From Escherichia coli (GTDB lineage: Bacteria > Pseudomonadota > Gammaproteobacteria > Enterobacterales > Enterobacteriaceae), in NCBI RefSeq assembly GCF_044324785.1, contig NZ_CP172127.1: a DNA stretch of 64,000 bases. The stretch is one strand, 5' to 3'. A program made the translations under genes and the position numbers. Of the stretch, positions 11,137-44,002 are shown one piece after another; within the stretch, counting starts at the first letter, position 1; every line of letters begins with the position of its first letter. Below the pieces are notes generated by a model. It saw only the letters and a list, made by a program, of their open reading frames with translations, had not been told where the DNA came from and did not search any database.

Positions 11137-11477
11137 TGGAATGATCTCCTCGAAAATTTATTTACATTACTGGTAAATCGTTAACATGTGTTAATTCGGA
11201 ATATTATATCATAACAGGAAAAATCTCGTCTATTAGAAATAAAAATATTCTAAAGCCATAATATTATATTTAATCTCATAAAAACTAATGTCGTTGGCGG
11301 ATTTTTTTATAATTGTGTTTTGAAAGCATACTTGCTTTTAATATGTGGAAATCATTAAGGCTAGAATAAAACTCGTATCCGCCCCAGGAAGCAAACAGCC
11401 TGCTTTATTGCAGGCTATTTGCTGGATGACTTACTAAATCCTTCACATCTATTCCTGATAAAAAGGAACAGAATTTA

Positions 11478-12932
11478 TTACCGGAACGGCGGCTCATTAA
11501 ATGTTCGTAATTTACGTGAATGCAGTCGGTCGCCTTCTGCGCGCAGCAAATCGATCGCCCGAATGCCAATTTGCAGGTGTTCGGAAATAGCGCCTTCATA
11601 AAAACGGTTAGCCTGACCGGGAAGTTTAATCTCACCATGCAACGGTTTATCTGAAACACACAATAGTGTCCCGTATGGCACGCGGAAACGATATCCTTGC
11701 GCGGCAATGGTTGCACTTTCCATATCAATTGCTACGGCCCGGCTTAAGTTAAAACGAAGTGCAGAAGCTGAGTAACGTAATTCCCAGTTCCTGTCATCTG
11801 TGGTTACCACAGTGCCAGTACGTAGCCGCTGTTTAACTTCCTCACCGGGCCTGCCGCTGACTAACTTGGTAGCGTCATAAAGCGCACGTTGCACTTCAGC
11901 AATGCTCGGAATAGGAATATCGGGCGGCAGTACCGCATCAAGAACGTGGTCATCGCGTAAATAAGCGTGTGCAAGTACATAATCTCCAATGGCCTGGCTT
12001 TCACGTAAGCCACCACAGTGACCAATCATCAACCAGACATCCGGGCGTAGCACCGCCAGATGATCGCAGATGGTTTTTGCATTTGACGGTCCCACGCCAA
12101 TATTCACCAGAGTAATACCCTGACCATCGGCGGTAATTAAATGCCATGCTGGCATCTGGTGTTTTTTCCATGCAAGGTCGGAAATGGCTTCTTCTGGCGC
12201 TTTGGTTTCGGCGGTGATCCAGTTCCCGCCAGCACAAGAAAGGGCAATGTAGGGACTATCAGGGTCGAGGATCTGGCTGCATCCCCAACGAACGAATTCA
12301 TCCACATAACGTGTGTAGTTGGTAAACAAGACGAACGGCTGAAAATGTTCAACTGGCGTACCGGTGTAATGGCGCAACCGCGCGAGGGAAAAATCGACGC
12401 GGCGCGCATCAAAATGCGATAGCGGGGAGAATTCCGTTGGATGATAAATGCCGTCTGCAGTTTCATCGCCAATTTGCGCCAGTTCTGTTGTCGGGAAGTA
12501 GCGAGTTAACCCAGCGCTCATTGAGCGATCAAGGGTCAATTCAGAGCCATCGATGACATAAGGATAAGGGATTTCATGCTGCGAGGGTTGCACCGAGATA
12601 TGCGCACCATAATCCTGATACAACAACGTAAGTTGTTCATTGAGATACGAACGAAAGAGAGTAGGGCGAGTAATCGTGGTGGTGTAGCTGCCTGCGTGGG
12701 TAAAGCGACCAAATGCGCGCGTTTTGGGGGGATTGGTTGTGCTACCGTCCCAGGTTACGGTCAGTGATGGATAGACAAAAAGACCTTGTTTGCGGGCGTT
12801 TTCATCAGGTAATTCGCCACTTGTAATATAGTTGCCAATGGCGTTGCGTAAAGCGACTACAGATTGCTCATACAACGCGTCGAGTTTATCCAGTGCCTGA
12901 GCTGGGGTCAGACCGGAGCCCTTATTATTCAT
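11478..12932 (-). CDS. amn: AMP nucleosidase
   Basis: 484-aa product from internal Met (MNNKGSGLTPAQALDKL...) with AGGAGA RBS; the ORF track extends 52 codons upstream. Confidence 0.93.
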   Translation of the reverse strand: MNNKGSGLTPAQALDKLDALYEQSVVALRNAIGNYITSGELPDENARKQGLFVYPSLTVTWDGSTTNPPKTRAFGRFTHAGSYTTTITRPTLFRSYLNEQLTLLYQDYGAHISVQPSQHEIPYPYVIDGSELTLDRSMSAGLTRYFPTTELAQIGDETADGIYHPTEFSPLSHFDARRVDFSLARLRHYTGTPVEHFQPFVLFTNYTRYVDEFVRWGCSQILDPDSPYIALSCAGGNWITAETKAPEEAISDLAWKKHQMPAWHLITADGQGITLVNIGVGPSNAKTICDHLAVLRPDVWLMIGHCGGLRESQAIGDYVLAHAYLRDDHVLDAVLPPDIPIPSIAEVQRALYDATKLVSGRPGEEVKQRLRTGTVVTTDDRNWELRYSASALRFNLSRAVAIDMESATIAAQGYRFRVPYGTLLCVSDKPLHGEIKLPGQANRFYEGAISEHLQIGIRAIDLLRAEGDRLHSRKLRTFNEPPFR

Positions 12933-13033
12933 GTGTGTCTCCTGTTCCATACAATTACCGCACATCCGATAGTATGTCACAGAAATGTGAAACAAAAGTG
13001 TAAGACGAAGATCGGATGATCTTCGCCAGGCTA

Positions 13034-14350
13034 TCAAGCGCGTTGATTGTCTTTCATCAACAAAGCGGTCATTGCGGAAATCAGGCATCCAGCCAGCAAA
13101 TAAATAGCGACGCTATGCCAGTTCCCGGCAAAGTAAGTGATGAGTGCAGCGGCAATAAAAGGTGTAAATCCACCGCCAACCACACTGGCAACCTGATAAC
13201 CGACTCCAGCACCACTGTAGCGATAACTGGCACCAAACATTTCGGTAAACATCGGTTGTTGCACACACACCACCATGTCATGCGCAATGTTTGCCAGCAT
13301 TATGGAGAAGAAAACTATCCAGAAAATAGATTGTGCTTCAAGCGCCATAAAGAAAGGAAATGCGCTCAACGTTCCGATCAACGCGCCTGTGATATAAACC
13401 CTGCGGCGACCAAAACGATCGGCAAGCCAGGCAAAACAGGGAATTGTCAGGCAGCTTAATCCACCGACCAGCAAACCAATATTAAGGAAAAGTTCGCGCG
13501 GTAACCCCATATTCTGGGTTGAATAATTAAGTGCGAAGGCGGTAACGATGTACATCGTCAGCAACTCGCACAGTCGTAGCGCAATAATCTTCAGGAAAGC
13601 ACCGGGATGTCGTAATAGTGCTTCGATAACCGGGATGCGTTTTTTCGCGGCCGCTTGATTATGTTGCTGTTGTTCAAATTCCGCGGACTCCTCCATGCCA
13701 TTGCGCACCCACAATGCTCCCAGTACCAGTACGATGCTAAACAGGAAAGGAATGCGCCAGCCCCAGCTTAAAAACTGTTCGTCAGTCGTCATCATACTGA
13801 TCAATGAAACCAGTCCAGTTGAAAGCAGTAAACCTACACCGTAGCCAACTTGTACACCGCTACTGTAAAAGGCTTTTTTATTTTTCGGAGCACTTTCAAC
13901 AGAAAGCAACGCTGCGCCTCCCCATTCGCCGCCGACGGCAAATCCCTGTATGGCACGCAGCGTCACCAGTAAAATGGGGGCCCACCACCCAATGGTCGAG
14001 AAGGAAGGAAGAATACCAATCAAGGCTGTCGCGATACCCATCATCCAGACGGTCAGCATTAACATGCGCTTACGTCCCAGTCGGTCGCCAAAGTGACCGA
14101 AAATGACACCGCCGAGTGGTCGGAAAAGGAAGCCGACACCAAAGGTGGCAAATGCGGCGAGCGTTCCCATCGCCGGGCTTACTTGCGGGAAAAACTCGCG
14201 ATTAAACACCAGTGCGGCGGTAATGCCATAGAGTAAAAAATCATACCAGTCGACGACGGCACCAGCGAAACTGCCGAACGCAGCTCGTCGGGCGCGACTT
14301 AACGAAAGCGTCCCTTCATCGGGACGAGTGGAGATGAGCGTGGAGTCCAT
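13034..14350 (-). CDS. shiA: shikimate/dehydroshikimate MFS transporter
   Basis: 438 aa, 12-TM MFS pattern, recognised as ShiA; synteny with amn. Confidence 0.93.
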   Translation of the reverse strand: MDSTLISTRPDEGTLSLSRARRAAFGSFAGAVVDWYDFLLYGITAALVFNREFFPQVSPAMGTLAAFATFGVGFLFRPLGGVIFGHFGDRLGRKRMLMLTVWMMGIATALIGILPSFSTIGWWAPILLVTLRAIQGFAVGGEWGGAALLSVESAPKNKKAFYSSGVQVGYGVGLLLSTGLVSLISMMTTDEQFLSWGWRIPFLFSIVLVLGALWVRNGMEESAEFEQQQHNQAAAKKRIPVIEALLRHPGAFLKIIALRLCELLTMYIVTAFALNYSTQNMGLPRELFLNIGLLVGGLSCLTIPCFAWLADRFGRRRVYITGALIGTLSAFPFFMALEAQSIFWIVFFSIMLANIAHDMVVCVQQPMFTEMFGASYRYSGAGVGYQVASVVGGGFTPFIAAALITYFAGNWHSVAIYLLAGCLISAMTALLMKDNQRA

Positions 14351-16299: not shown

Positions 16300-24915
<8,616 letters not shown>

Positions 24916-25113
24916 GCTTACCTTCCCTGAACGAGCTAACATAAATGCGCCCTTTCTAGCACAGCGAAAAAAAGTAAATCCTGATAGCAATATGATTGAA
25001 AATTAATAACTTTTCGTTAAGCAGTTTTGAGTGTGAGTTGCAAGAGGGGAGACTACTGAATTACTCAAGTTTTATAATCGAGGGGAAAATGGTGATGGCG
25101 TTCATAGCAAAAC

Positions 25114-39299: not shown

Positions 39300-39377
39300 T
39301 ATTTGCGCTTAAAAAGGTATTTAGTCACAACCAGCACGAGGCCGAATACTCTGTCAAAGTACCGCCCATGTAAAACT
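39300..39377. repeat. decayed copy of the 3' end of the two-TM gene (direct repeat partner of 42901..42978)
   Basis: about 92% identical over ~78 bp to 42901..42978, with a 1-bp deletion that frameshifts the encoded C-terminus. Confidence 0.75.
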
Positions 39378-39447
39378 GTAACGTATGTACTTGATGACTA
39401 AGCTGGCACCAGGTTAACACCAGGCGCCAGCTTGAAGGAAACTTCAG

Positions 39448-40371
39448 TTATTGGTTTCTGAGGAAAGCGATTCTTGAAAGGGTCATTTGCGTCTGGCAGT
39501 CGACCATTTTCTTGACTTCAGCATCTGTTCCCTGCATTGAAACTTTACCGCACATAGCATCCTTAGTTTTGATCCACTGACGCTGAGAAGGCAGCAAATC
39601 TTTTTTCTTCGCCGGGGTTAACTTGCTCCAGACGGTACTCAAATCAGAGTCGGCATTCGCAAATGCCATTCGGGACTGATCAAGGCTGTCAGCTTTTTGT
39701 GGCTGAAGTTGTGCCTGTCTCTCTATTTGCTTCTCCGCCTCATACTTAGCCTGTTCCTGCGCCCTGAGTTGCACCTGTTGTTCCGCTTCAATTTGGCTCT
39801 GTTGGGCATCCTTAGCCTGCTGGATTTTCTGCTGCTCAACGATCGGGTTGATAATAGAAAGTGATGTCAGTAAAGCGGCGCCCACTGATATCGGATTATC
39901 AGAAGAGGTTTTTACAAAAACGTTTTTCTGATCGTCGGTCGCCTGCACGGTGTAGGTGATACGTTTGGAAAAGGCGTTTGCGTTGTTCTCCAAAAACAGG
40001 CTTTCCATTTGCTTGTCGAGATTACGATTAAAATTCTTTCTGTAATCATCAGAAAGCTGGACGTATTCGTTCGCAGGTAGAGTCATCGTCACGGTCCCTT
40101 CACAAGTTTTCATTGTGCTGCCCGTGTCACTTGATGTTGTGGAGATTTCAGAGATGGCTAGTTTGATCTTGTCCAATGTGCTTCGTTTGGTCTGATTAGT
40201 GACATCAGGGTATTTATCGACCTGTTCAGAGAGTCCTTCATAAGCAGATTTTTTTAATAAATCCATAAGCGCTGACTGGGTTATTTCCGAAGAACAACCG
40301 ATCACATCTTTTTTGTTATCACAGCCTGTAAGGGCAATGGCGAGTAAGAGTACTGAGTATTTTAATCTCAT
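39448..40371 (-). CDS. lipoprotein with C-terminal DUF1311/LprI-like domain
   Basis: signal peptide plus lipobox LTGC; Gln-rich coiled region; C-terminal SQRQWIKTKDAMC...C pattern. Confidence 0.65.
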   Translation of the reverse strand: MRLKYSVLLLAIALTGCDNKKDVIGCSSEITQSALMDLLKKSAYEGLSEQVDKYPDVTNQTKRSTLDKIKLAISEISTTSSDTGSTMKTCEGTVTMTLPANEYVQLSDDYRKNFNRNLDKQMESLFLENNANAFSKRITYTVQATDDQKNVFVKTSSDNPISVGAALLTSLSIINPIVEQQKIQQAKDAQQSQIEAEQQVQLRAQEQAKYEAEKQIERQAQLQPQKADSLDQSRMAFANADSDLSTVWSKLTPAKKKDLLPSQRQWIKTKDAMCGKVSMQGTDAEVKKMVDCQTQMTLSRIAFLRNQ

Positions 40372-40996
40372 GAATTCCCTTTAGAGTAAGGATTGGTTTT
40401 TAAGACGCGGTCTGTAATCAGTTCCGAGAGCTACAGTAAACAACGCTGAGCACTGAACGCATCACAGGCAAGGTAAAGGCGATATCGGCAAAGGCTGTGA
40501 AACCTTTAATTCAACAGATGGAAACGGTATGCGCAGGATCCTGTAACGACGCTCCCAAAACCGGAAACCTGTAAGGCATGTTTTCGCTGCTGAACTTAAT
40601 ATACGAACCTGCACTATCATGAACATATTTTATATCGTTATACCCCGAGTGATTGTGCCCGGCAATGGATAGTGTCCTGGAGGAACTATTTCTACTGTAA
40701 AAGGTAGACATTTAATTTCAGTGTGGAATTATTCCCTGCTGTTAATAACCATGGCTCTATATGGCACCGAGCGGACTAGTTAACTTGCCTGAAAGCCGCT
40801 ATGAGTGAGGAGCGAATATTGGCACGAGAGGATACCTGAACCATTTTTTGGACATGCGCTAAAAGCGAATGATTAGTTTTATCGGAATATTTACAGTATA
40901 CTTACAAGGCAAGCTTGGCGTGCCGTCTTGGGCGAGATTGCTTAAATTATTTTGTGGATATATCATTCAAACAAAAGATAATAAAATGAGGTTGTT

Positions 40997-41194
40997 ATGT
41001 CATATATTCGCGTAGAGAAAGATGGCCTTCAGTATGAAGCAGAATACTTCCGTAAAGAGGATATGGTCACAGTCTTTGGGGTTAGAGGAGGGCATTCCAG
41101 CGTGGTTCTAAATGGAATGACAGAAGTCGCGGCTGCTCGTACTGCGTTACGAAATCTTATTAGAGAAAATCAGGTTGATCCTCTAACTGATTAA
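40997..41194 (+). CDS. hypothetical small protein (AT-rich cassette)
   Basis: 65-aa ORF. Confidence 0.35.
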   Translation: MSYIRVEKDGLQYEAEYFRKEDMVTVFGVRGGHSSVVLNGMTEVAAARTALRNLIRENQVDPLTD

Positions 41195-41398
41195 AAATAA
41201 GCCATCTTAACTGAGAGCATATTTTGATATAATTTAGATTAAATCTATTTTGAAGGTTAGTTTGGGATGAGAAGATTACATCAAAACCGTTATTACTAGC
41301 AATAAGTTGTGTAAATCAAATAATACATAATCATGTGGTAACATATACTAAGCGTAGTAAAGTTTTTATATATTCCTGTAACTTTGTGAGAAACTTCC

Positions 41399-42064
41399 AT
41401 GAAAGCCGACAACTTAAGAATTATAGAGAATGGCAAATATGTTTTCGATATGTTCTTGGATACTGGTGAATTTTACTATACAAGTCATGCCTTTGACACG
41501 AGAGAAGATGCAAAAAGCTGGATGGAAGAATGGCAGATTTGGGCAAATAATGTATCGAGTGGGAAAGTAAGTAGTATTTATTATATTTTACAAGTGCCTG
41601 ATACTTGGGCCGGTTCTTCAGATAAAAATAACCCTTACTCGGGACTTTATGTGAAAATAGGGCGTTCCAATAATGTGCTAAAAAGGTTGTCTAACCTGCA
41701 GACAGGTGCATTTGGTCAATTAATATTACACGCTTTGGAACCTGGTGGTTCAGAAAAAGAAAACTATCTTCATGAAAAATTTAGCAACGAAAGACGTCAA
41801 GGTGAATGGTTTGTTTGTACTAAGGAACTTACCAAGCATATATTTACAACATGGTTTAAAAACAAAATGCTCCCACCAGAACATCAAATAAAAATAATGC
41901 AGCTCGCAGAAAGAATAGGTATTTATTCGCATGTTCATACACTAATGGGGGGGAAGCCAGACTTAGTAAACCCATCTATTAGTGAACCTTGGGAATGCGA
42001 AAAATATGTTTTGGTTGATATGATTTATAGCTCTTTAGCAAAGCAAGTTAATCATAAAAAATAA
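41399..42064 (+). CDS. T5orf172 (GIY-YIG superfamily)-like protein
   Basis: 221 aa; core GLYVKIGRSNNVLKRLSNLQTG...ENYLHEKFSNERRQGEWFVC matches T5orf172/MUG113 pattern. Confidence 0.5.
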   Translation: MKADNLRIIENGKYVFDMFLDTGEFYYTSHAFDTREDAKSWMEEWQIWANNVSSGKVSSIYYILQVPDTWAGSSDKNNPYSGLYVKIGRSNNVLKRLSNLQTGAFGQLILHALEPGGSEKENYLHEKFSNERRQGEWFVCTKELTKHIFTTWFKNKMLPPEHQIKIMQLAERIGIYSHVHTLMGGKPDLVNPSISEPWECEKYVLVDMIYSSLAKQVNHKK

Positions 42065-42384
42065 AGTGTTACATTTTAACCATACAATTATTGATTCACT
42101 AATGAAGAGGTGATTTAAACGTATGAAGTTTTAATAAGCTCCAAGAATATTTTGTCATACATGGGTTAAAGAGTTATATAATAATATCTGCTTCTGGAAT
42201 ACAGCAGACAAGCACCTGCAGATAAAGGTCTGCTGAGAGCGAGAAGCGGATCATACGTTGGAAGTTGTTTAGGCAAATACGTTATAAACGTATTTGATTA
42301 AATTTACTTGGATCATAGTCTTCAATAACGCTTTATTATATTGTTTTTCATGCAGCAAACAGGTTTACAGGTAGGTAATAAGCT

Positions 42385-42789
42385 ATGAGTGGATGGAAAG
42401 AGTCTTTTACATTAGCAGAACAGATACAATTAGCATTAAATTTAGGTTATGAGGCTGTACCAGATGAAGAGGCATATACTGGGGCATACTTCATTAAAGG
42501 TGGTAAGAAGTGGATCTTTAACATCATCGGTCTCAAAAAGACATTGAATATATCTTCAGATGATGAACTAAGAGGGCAGGATTATGATGTTGATATGTAT
42601 TTCGAAATTCGCCAAAATTGGGCACAATACCAAGATATGATCTTTGGAAGCGAAGATATCACTCCTTCACCTAAAAATGAACTTACTTCAATTTACCATG
42701 ACCTGCAGGTAACGGATGAACCCAGGGAAATGGTGTATCTTTCTGATGGGATGTGGCTGGATCCCAACGGACGAATTGTACAACGATAG
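42385..42789 (+). CDS. hypothetical protein (AT-rich cassette)
   Basis: 134-aa ORF. Confidence 0.4.
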   Translation: MSGWKESFTLAEQIQLALNLGYEAVPDEEAYTGAYFIKGGKKWIFNIIGLKKTLNISSDDELRGQDYDVDMYFEIRQNWAQYQDMIFGSEDITPSPKNELTSIYHDLQVTDEPREMVYLSDGMWLDPNGRIVQR

Positions 42790-42898
42790 CACTCGAACAC
42801 ACTCAGTAATCGTCTATAAGGCCAGCACTTGTTACTTGGTCATTTGGGGTTGCTGGTCTTCTCCATTAAATCGACTAAAGTCTGTTCCATAGAGAGAG

Positions 42899-43504
42899 TT
42901 ACTTGCGTTTAAAAAGGTATTTTGTCACGACCAGCACGAGGCCGAATACCTCTGTCAAAGTACCGCCCATGTACAACTGGAGCGTTAAGTCTTTAAATAC
43001 AAGCCATTCAGCACCAGTGGCAAAAAATACACCATTCATTATCAAAAGCTGGCAAGCAAGGATAATAAGGAACCATTTGCCATAGCGTTTTTTTAGATCG
43101 ATTTCAGCTTCAAAATCTTTGTTGTTGAGTTGTTTGCGCTCATGCTCAGTATCAAGTGAATTCACCTGTTTCACAGATGTGAACTCGGTCAAGATTTTAC
43201 TCTCAGTACGGGTGACTTGTTGAGAGGGGGTAGGAATTGGAATTCTTTTGATTGACGCAGCTACAGCCATTTTGCGAGCTTCGGCAGCTCTTTTTCTGGC
43301 TATTCCGTGAATACGGGCAGACGGTTTTTTTGGAGCATGCGAAACCTTTGTCTGAGGTGAAGTTTCGTCAGGAGACTGAACCGGAGTTTCATCCTCCTCC
43401 GGCTCAACCTCTTCTGCTAACTGACGGTGTAGGTTGAGGGAATCCTTCAGTCGGCGTGCAACTTCCTGTTTGAAACGGCTGTTAAAATCGTCATCCGATG
43501 GCAT
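42899..43504 (-). CDS. membrane protein with hydrophilic N-terminal region and two C-terminal TM helices
   Basis: 201 aa; TM segments WFLIILACQLLIMNGVFFATGA and LYMGGTLTEVFGLVLVVTKYLF; starts 10 nt after peptidase gene. Confidence 0.6.
   Translation of the reverse strand: MPSDDDFNSRFKQEVARRLKDSLNLHRQLAEEVEPEEDETPVQSPDETSPQTKVSHAPKKPSARIHGIARKRAAEARKMAVAASIKRIPIPTPSQQVTRTESKILTEFTSVKQVNSLDTEHERKQLNNKDFEAEIDLKKRYGKWFLIILACQLLIMNGVFFATGAEWLVFKDLTLQLYMGGTLTEVFGLVLVVTKYLFKRK
42901..42978. repeat. intact direct-repeat partner of 39300..39377 (encodes last 26 codons of the two-TM protein)
   Basis: reverse-complement translation gives QLYMGGTLTEVFGLVLVVTKYLFKRK*. Confidence 0.75.
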
Positions 43505-43513
43505 TCTAAAGCG

Positions 43514-44002
43514 TTACCCCAACCTCAAGTTCTTTAAACGATAAGTCATCGCATCGTCAGATACGCCAAAATGATGCGCCATTATATAACTTGGTTGGCC
43601 GTCAGCGTGCAGTTTTCTGACCTCATCTACCGGCATCAGAAGTTCTGCTGCGAACTTGTTCGCAAAAATTTCATCAGGATGCGTTCCGGCGCTTGCGGTT
43701 TCGCCACGTAAATCAACGTACTCATATTCATCGCTATGCGATGCTTGCCGGGCGATGTAATGCCCCAACTCATGCCCACATGAAAAACGTTGACGAACTT
43801 TGTTGTCATCACTGTTTAGAAAGATCGCTGGATCTTGATCTTTTTGTTTAATCAGTGCGCCAGAAACTTTCCCAGGAAGATCGGTAATAAAAACATCTAA
43901 TCCCATGTCGTGAGCAATTTTCGCTGGATCAACAGGGAAACCACGCCCGCACCAGAACGTGTCCAGCACTCGCCGGGCGTGCTCTCTTGGGTTGGTAGCC
44001 AT
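43514..44002 (-). CDS. ImmA/IrrE-family (M78-like) zinc metallopeptidase, stand-alone
   Basis: 162 aa; HEXXH as CGHELGHYI and downstream EIFANKFAAELLMP. Confidence 0.7.
   Translation of the reverse strand: MATNPREHARRVLDTFWCGRGFPVDPAKIAHDMGLDVFITDLPGKVSGALIKQKDQDPAIFLNSDDNKVRQRFSCGHELGHYIARQASHSDEYEYVDLRGETASAGTHPDEIFANKFAAELLMPVDEVRKLHADGQPSYIMAHHFGVSDDAMTYRLKNLRLG

Follow-up and report, generated by a model that had tools for sequence, protein, structure and literature searches.

Does a block of three genes in a variable part of a prophage form one system, and if it does not, which of its genes would be the functional one? The question is raised by a stretch of 64,000 nucleotides (nt) from Escherichia coli (contig NZ_CP172127.1, assembly GCF_044324785.1); the window below means this whole stretch, and all positions are given in its coordinates. 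A preliminary description, made from the sequence alone, had noticed three co-oriented open reading frames (ORFs) in AT-rich DNA and had read them as a defence or exclusion module, consisting of a nuclease-like protein and small partners. The three ORFs were located precisely at the positions given there, all on the plus strand: ORF65 (40997-41194), encoding a small conserved protein of 65 amino acid residues (aa) with a four-strand-plus-helix fold; ORF221 (41399-42064, 221 aa), named a GIY-YIG nuclease family protein in the RefSeq annotation; and ORF134 (42385-42789, 134 aa), which is not a partner of ORF221. The defence or exclusion reading stands in part, in agreement with the domain content, the hotspot location and the defence-gene neighbours of diverged ORF221 homologues, but its three-gene framing fails. 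In our judgement the chances are about even that ORF221 acts alone as a nuclease in defence or superinfection exclusion, a function predicted from its domains and genomic contexts, and nucleotide comparison indicates that the accessory genes (morons) of the block were acquired independently and form a mosaic.

The ORF221 protein and its family

The assignment of the 221-aa protein to the T5orf172/MUG113 type proved significant in Pfam, with matches to MUG113 (PF13455; independent E-value 1.1e-9, residues 85-147) and to T5orf172 (PF10544; independent E-value 9.2e-7, residues 74-152), and both domains are present in 33 of 33 full-length homologues according to precomputed domain matches. T5orf172 is a subfamily of GIY-YIG, and its nuclease activity needs a conserved Glu, as described for Odn of ICP1 (PMC8263062; summarised in PMC10448857). 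By its sequence, ORF221 belongs to the T5orf172/MUG113 branch of GIY-YIG. In the alignment of 28 homologues of 39-90% identity (alignment A1), 36 columns are invariant, including Y61, Y62, K86-I87-G88, R96, E121, H125, R132-R133 and G135-E136-W137-F138 in the core and L158, P159, N191, P192, W198 and D207 in the C-terminal region. The GIY-YIG motif set, consisting of the strand-1 Tyr, (Y/K)IG, the helix-1 Arg and the Glu, is present as Y61/Y62, K86-I87-G88, R96 and E136, of which R96, E136 and the others may be assigned as catalytic positions by way of published alignments (PMC8263062). ORF221 is a predicted nuclease. The same alignment contains no conserved Cys, and no Pfam match was obtained to a DNA-binding domain of the Zn-finger, CapR, DUF723 or DUF4397 type.

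The protein is divided into three parts, all encoded on the plus strand. Residues 1-57 (41399-41569) form a YegP/UPF0339 (DUF1508)-like domain of three strands plus a helix, a candidate sensor or substrate-binding domain; residues 58-155 (41570-41863) form the T5orf172/MUG113 GIY-YIG-type nuclease core; and residues 156-221 with the stop codon (41864-42064) form a family-specific helical hairpin followed by a conserved tail. An N-terminal region in front of the core had been noticed before and is indeed present, but its length is about 57 residues instead of the estimated 80, and it is a folded, YegP/UPF0339-like domain. The AlphaFold model built from the family alignment is compact (predicted local distance difference test, pLDDT, 89.6; predicted template modelling score, pTM, 0.85) and includes the GIY-YIG alpha/beta fold; its N-domain resembles UPF0339, its core resembles SLX1-type GIY-YIG, and the N-domain packs on the core. 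We suggest a sensor role for the N-domain, which was unmatched by PF07411 even at E <= 10. The C-terminal region (residues 156-221) has no Pfam match and no known relatives. This three-part architecture, in which a T5orf172 core stands between a YegP-like domain and a conserved tail, appears to be undescribed.

Full-length homologues of ORF221 are 213-252 aa in length and share 39-90% identity. They were detected in Enterobacterales, Vibrio, Pseudoalteromonas, Moritella, Colwellia and Thiohalophilus, in heterocystous and other cyanobacteria, in a Flavobacterium and in an acidobacterial metagenome-assembled genome, and a member from the archaeon Nitrosarchaeum was found by structure. The family is nevertheless patchy, being present in only 16 of about 100,000 species representatives, which belong to several phyla. 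Among 1.84 billion representatives at 50% identity, 12 reach E <= 1e-30 while 29,613 share only the T5orf172 core, and among 2.9 million contigs of IMG/VR there are three full-length copies, all in temperate-phage-like contexts. Patchy distribution together with high conservation is typical of horizontally traded defence genes.

The genomic contexts of the homologues are as diverse as their hosts. In Vibrio vulnificus, the ORF221 homologue is a one-gene cassette between attC-like repeats, within a chromosomal integron array that also contains toxin-antitoxin cassettes; another homologue is located at the end of a CTX-like filamentous prophage, and others in an integrative island, at a prophage end and in chromosomal islets. 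Clustering of the neighbours at 21 ORF221 loci detected no partner conserved beyond a close clade and no common flanking target gene. As judged from these sequence comparisons, ORF221 is an independently mobile single gene. A metagenomic protein of 259 aa (P0113), considered as a domain fusion with the ORF221 tail, looks from its sequence alone like a chimera of an insertion sequence (IS) transposase and a gene, and was set aside as uninformative; its N-terminal IS-type transposase-like fragment lies in frame with an ORF221-type tail, suggesting that insertion of an IS disrupted a member of the family.

In about 6 of 15 distinct ORF221 contexts (raw count), proteins with strong PADLOC or Pfam matches to defence proteins are encoded within two genes of the homologue. 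These include a PARIS-like pair of AAA_15/21 and DUF4435 in Enterobacter cloacae, a type II restriction endonuclease with a C5-methyltransferase in a Vibrio, PDC-S70 with an AriA-like ATPase in Trichormus, Csx1 with Csm4 in the acidobacterium, a methyltransferase with a DrmC-like protein in Flavobacterium, and PDC-M04A with a BrxH-like helicase in a metagenome. Recurrent location near known defence systems in unrelated genomes is therefore observed for the diverged homologues of ORF221.

Make-up of the block and its slot in the prophage

All three ORFs are genuine genes under purifying selection, the ratio of non-synonymous to synonymous substitution rates being 0.12-0.23 for each of them against homologues in other genera (0.13-0.18 for ORF134). 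Neither ORF65 nor ORF134 has a match in Pfam, PHROGs, NCBIfam, PADLOC or the sequences of the Protein Data Bank (PDB); NCBIfam gave zero matches for any of the three proteins, and the search against PDB chains gave nothing meaningful for ORF65, ORF221 or ORF134. The three genes are not closely packed, with gaps of 204 nt between ORF65 and ORF221 and 320 nt between ORF221 and ORF134, and gaps of this length weigh against a tight operon. No match at E <= 1 was detected by an Rfam scan of 40300-43000, and the idea of a structured RNA within the long spacers was rejected on this result. The promoter and terminator scans gave 9 and 2 candidates against expectations of 9.9 and 1.6 from shuffled sequence, indicating no excess, and a hairpin at 42274-42296 from the terminator scan is only a suggestion.

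Comparison at the nucleotide level divides the block into two modules on the plus strand. Module A, in which a conserved spacer separates ORF65 from ORF221 and about 190 nt follow ORF221, shares 84-86% nucleotide identity over exactly 40901-42250 with two loci, one in an AlpA/YfjJ-type integrative island of Enterobacter ludwigii (L002) and the other beside a prophage integrase in Morganella (L008). In the Enterobacter ludwigii island, just upstream of ORF65-ORF221, a second and unrelated T5orf172/MUG113 protein (268 aa) and a 302-aa partner are encoded divergently (L002 3176-4892), neither of which has a PADLOC match. Module B (42279-42872), consisting of ORF134 with its flanks, shows 81-84% nucleotide identity to sequence at the ends of lambdoid prophages in Proteus and of P2-like prophages in Citrobacter, indicating an independently circulating moron. 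Homologues of ORF134 were found in Proteus, Providencia, Serratia, Citrobacter and Yersinia. Solitary copies are located at the prophage integrase end in Proteus, two genes from ApeA (HEPN) (L027/L028 5001-8689), and, in Citrobacter, with yegQ on one side and the ogr/D end of a P2-like prophage on the other (L030/L031 5001-5802). The ogr/D end is a cargo position in P2-like phages. ORF134 and ORF221 occur together in 17 E. coli genomes, in two 100%-identical IMG/VR contigs and in one genome of Escherichia whittamii, and in the 21 loci compared ORF134 is absent from every ORF221 locus outside this prophage lineage. With this co-occurrence pattern, which bears directly on the supposed module of three genes, and with the mapping of the nucleotide modules, a three-gene operon was rejected.

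ORF65 is the sole recurrent neighbour of ORF221. It is found at 6 of the 21 loci, all of them with an ORF221 at least 88% identical, and never accompanies homologues of 76% identity or less. Its own homologues, forming 32 clusters of 63-97% identity, include those located in the variable regions of enterobacterial islands of the AlpA/YfjJ/P4-integrase type, upstream of changing cargo (L016-L026), such as an FRG-domain protein, a 441-aa protein, reverse-strand genes and the conflict systems CTD6-MC2 and CTD1-MComp1-AAA_15. The nucleotide homology of these loci to the window ends at 41206-41258, just beyond the stop codon of ORF65. For cargo slots in enterobacterial islands, ORF65 may serve as an anchor for recombination or as a small regulator; as a secondary reading, it would mark, and perhaps regulate, variable slots for defence cargo there. 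Its AlphaFold model (pLDDT 94.9), with four strands plus a helix, has no convincing structural neighbour, and the idea that ORF65 mimics or is related to the N-domain of ORF221 was rejected after comparison by hhalign, which showed no profile similarity. With modules A and B separate and ORF65 itself separable, the block is a mosaic rather than one system.

The spacer between ORF65 and ORF221 (41195-41398, plus strand) has a G+C fraction (GC) of 0.275 and is conserved in six loci, the copy in the window being without 46 nt that are present in the other five (L002, L008, L037, L050 and L051). It contains an extended -10-like element, TGATATAAT, at 41225-41233. At this place the five related loci have TGAGATAT(A/T)T, TGAAATATT or TGATATATT, and the -10-like element is thus not conserved; since the promoter scan was at the level of shuffled sequence, a promoter at TGATATAAT is only a suggestion. 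The differences in the spacer could alter the expression of ORF221.

The prophage that carries the block is lambdoid, and the block lies in its early region, between the replication genes with a DnaB-type helicase and the Q antiterminator, as annotated in a 95.6%-identical prophage. The chromosomal part of the window (1-34000) is about 95% identical to E. coli and includes yeeJ, the gene for an inverse autotransporter (16300-24990), followed by mtfA and then the integrase; by this identity, and by the ORF221 match in E. whittamii given below, the window would probably belong to an Escherichia other than E. coli, with the prophage integrated beside mtfA. The block is carried by 17 of 5,426 complete E. 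coli genomes, each with at least 99% identity and always in this prophage, and an identical ORF221 is also found in the one E. whittamii genome.

Foreign composition and location at a prophage hotspot, both noted at the outset, are well supported by comparison with sibling prophages. Homology in blastn ends at 40771 in both siblings examined, L033 and L034, and restarts at 42877 in L033; these breaks define 40772-42876 as a variable cargo slot of 2.1 kb. The GC of the slot is 0.364, compared with 0.488 for the entire window, and that of the block is 0.32-0.39 against about 0.45-0.55 in the flanks. In L033, from the ST131-type strain Ecol_AZ162, the slot is filled by a single 232-aa protein (L033 4668-5366) with a weak match to a DRT-associated membrane protein (E 1.8e-5). 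In L034, from E. coli L26, the region beyond the same left boundary (8436-13940) carries PD-T4-3/CMoRE (PADLOC E 4.7e-137), a 410-aa HNH protein and three unknown proteins. The flanks are common to the siblings, the left including genes for an ORF6N antirepressor-like protein and an LprI-family lipoprotein, the right including genes for a 201-aa protein and an ImmA/IrrE metallopeptidase, and by this comparison the slot is exchangeable through recombination between conserved flanks. Given the PD-T4-3/CMoRE and other cargo of the siblings, this position could be a source of more candidates. The locus illustrates how modules from integrative islands, P2-like prophages and integrons come to tile a slot of a lambdoid prophage.

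The backbone genes on both sides are encoded on the minus strand. To the left lies the LprI-family lipoprotein gene (39448-40371, 307 aa; phrog_5094, E 6e-186), its RefSeq name being taken from a 96%-identical gene, which is kept in the sibling prophages. To the right lie the gene for the 201-aa protein with a hydrophobic C-terminus (42899-43504; phrog_5346, E 5.7e-128) and that for the ImmA/IrrE metallopeptidase (43514-44002; phrog_87), a CapP-like protein (PADLOC capP, E 1.9e-25) with no HTH partner evident alongside. The cassette had been described as bounded by repeats, and an 86-nt direct repeat (repeat families D1 and D2) was detected on its two sides, with 92% identity and one indel between the copies. 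The right copy (42900-42985) forms the 3' end of the 201-aa gene on the reverse strand; the left copy (39300-39384), bounding the cassette of LprI plus cargo, is a relic left by a homologue of that gene, from its 3' end, and in tblastn the C-terminus of the 201-aa protein matches the corresponding left position in a related locus (L001). The presence of this relic 3.6 kb to the left suggests that LprI and the slot were inserted together by recombination within the end of the 201-aa gene. Clustered regularly interspaced short palindromic repeat (CRISPR) arrays annotated in other E. coli, for example in NZ_AP019803.1, NZ_CP173472.1 and NZ_CM169480.1, match the 5' end of the LprI gene (window 40336-40379) at 93% over 44 nt, and an array in NZ_CP178438.1 matches 43762-43796 within the ImmA/IrrE gene at 100% over 35 nt; these may be spacers targeting this prophage family.

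Possible roles of ORF221

As a defence or exclusion nuclease, ORF221 would be the functional core of the block, a self-sufficient single polypeptide with an N-domain, a catalytically intact core and a helical tail, and would protect the lysogen, island or integron that carries the gene from other phages and mobile DNA. Recognition of some feature of the invading nucleic acid would fall to the N-domain and the C-terminal tail, or these would keep the enzyme inactive before infection; DNA would then be cut at the Tyr/Arg/Glu active site. ORF65 and ORF134 would be separate small genes that ORF221 does not need, ORF65 perhaps travelling with it as a neighbour, or regulating it, only in the enterobacterial clade. 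Several observations weigh against this role. About half of the sampled contexts (L052, L053, L055, L057, L061 and L064) have no recognisable defence neighbour, and our literature search found no paper on the ORF221 family. In agreement with the preliminary description, which could not assign the block to a named system, PADLOC gave only a weak match, to PDC-S57 over residues 83-157 of ORF221, and this is marginal (E 0.0037, 14.9 bits). ORF221 is co-oriented with early transcription of the prophage and could serve the lytic cycle of the phage itself, and a nuclease acting alone, with neither a modification nor an immunity partner, needs some means of distinguishing self from non-self.

The orientation of ORF221 along the delayed-early unit, from the replication genes to Q, leads directly to a reading in which the protein serves the phage or element itself, as an early nuclease against host or competitor DNA, in recombination processing, in counter-defence, or as a domesticated DNA-binding regulator of the CapR type. 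T5orf172 domains have been domesticated as a repressor (CapR, PMC8096241) and as an anti-satellite weapon (Odn, PMC8263062), and phage HK106 has a T5orf172-type gene as late-region cargo. We nevertheless consider this role unlikely, because most members of the family are located outside phages, in chromosomal islets, integron cassettes and integrative islands, and sibling prophages without ORF221 carry defence cargo in the same region; the invariance of the catalytic residues across phyla argues against a purely DNA-binding role. It is quite improbable that the genes of the block cooperate, with ORF65 as antitoxin, regulator or sensor of ORF221 in a two-gene pair or with ORF134 in a three-gene system. 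All six loci with at least 88% identity, from three genomic settings, have ORF65 some 200-255 nt upstream of ORF221, the spacer between them is conserved as well, and a small gene upstream of a nuclease resembles the classic toxin-antitoxin layout. Such a pair is, however, missing from all homologues of 76% identity or less, one of which is the one-gene integron cassette, and ORF65 occurs without ORF221, its nucleotide homology stopping just after its stop codon. The intergenic gaps of 204 and 320 nt and the lack of profile similarity between ORF65 and the ORF221 N-domain point in the same direction, while the three-gene version is opposed by ORF134, a separate nucleotide module that never joins ORF221 outside this prophage lineage. 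An obligatory toxin-antitoxin pair of ORF65 and ORF221 was rejected on the co-occurrence at 6 of 21 loci, the presence of ORF65 elsewhere with other cargo, the 204-nt gap and the one-gene cassette.

Mobility by itself could also be the only function of ORF221, if the protein were a selfish free-standing homing endonuclease of the ICP1/T5-like T5orf172 type, cutting cognate sites with no benefit to the carrier. T5orf172 proteins are the major class of homing endonucleases in ICP1 and several phage lineages (PMC10448857), and the ORF221 gene is AT-rich and solitary, occurs in many unrelated contexts and has its catalytic residues intact. Against this, ORF221 is without the Zn-finger or CapR/DUF723-type domain present in 87% of those homing endonucleases (PMC10448857); the three IMG/VR copies are temperate-phage-like, with near absence from lytic phages; its flanks have no common target gene, and sibling prophages hold other cargo instead of an empty site. 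The mobility of the gene is accounted for by exchange of the slot between conserved flanks and by attC recombination in integrons, and the neighbours of its homologues are defence genes and not essential phage genes. Homing is thus a quite improbable explanation.

For ORF221 as a defence or exclusion nuclease, a more specific proposal can be made only tentatively, and we regard it as possible and still rather doubtful: the family would be an unrecognised single-protein immune nuclease, in which the YegP/UPF0339-type domain senses infection or substrate and gates the T5orf172 active site. If this is true, it would provide the first functional role for the YegP fold, which is widespread and without an assigned function, and a defence gene of 0.7 kb conserved from enterobacteria to cyanobacteria and archaea. 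If ORF221 is protective, the defence catalogue gains a single-gene nuclease that is very compact (221 aa) and has an unusual sensor domain; if it has no phenotype, the finding is an ordinary patch of prophage morons.

Comparison with known systems

PF10544 has been listed among the domains associated with defence (PMC7251935, citing Makarova 2011 and Doron 2018), and compact defences encoded by integron cassettes are described in a preprint (bioRxiv 10.1101/2024.07.02.601719). PDC-S57, a single-gene candidate of PADLOC, is like ORF221 encoded by one gene, and its weak match extends over the T5orf172 core; since a match of 14.9 bits involves only the shared nuclease core, ORF221 is not of the same family. 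The N-domain can be compared with UPF0339/DUF1508 (YegP) and with NsnA of Menshen, in which pairs of DUF1508 have been proposed as nucleic-acid sensors (PMC12065111). The DUF1508 pair is in tandem there, whereas ORF221 has a single copy, and in ORF221 the YegP-like domain is fused to a T5orf172 nuclease, a combination that we did not find described.

The T5orf172 proteins of ICP1 and PLE (Odn/Gp88 and CapR) share with ORF221 the PF10544/PF13455 domain, the conserved Arg and Glu, the modular joining of a nuclease with a specificity domain and the involvement in conflicts between mobile elements. Only the core of about 70 residues can be aligned (PMC8263062, PMC8096241, PMC10448857). The ICP1/PLE proteins contain Zn-finger (CapR, DUF723, DUF4397) or RepA_N domains, in contrast to the YegP-like N-domain and unique C-terminal tail of ORF221, and they are encoded in lytic phage and satellite genomes near essential genes, whereas ORF221 occupies cargo positions in prophages, islands and integrons. 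Having neither a Zn-finger domain nor a phage location adjacent to essential genes, ORF221 was not assigned to the ICP1/T5-like class of homing endonucleases.

PD-T4-3/CMoRE is a validated defence, a single-protein GIY-YIG type IV restriction endonuclease (PMC12923530). ORF221 was rejected as a member of this system on profile, hhalign and domain order alike: it has no match to the PADLOC profile PDLC04031, and hhalign of alignment A1 against the protein of L034 finds no alignment. The order of domains is reversed in ORF221, whose accessory domain precedes a centrally placed T5orf172-type core; this core has KIG instead of YIG; and the accessory domain is YegP-like, different from the 5hmC-sensing fold of CMoRE. 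The resemblance is in the general design and in the location. PD-T4-3/CMoRE, like ORF221, is a stand-alone protein of about 220-270 aa, in which a small non-catalytic domain accompanies a GIY-YIG nuclease and which has no modification partner, and it too is carried as cargo of prophages and islands, including the sibling prophage in which it is present beyond the left boundary of the same slot.

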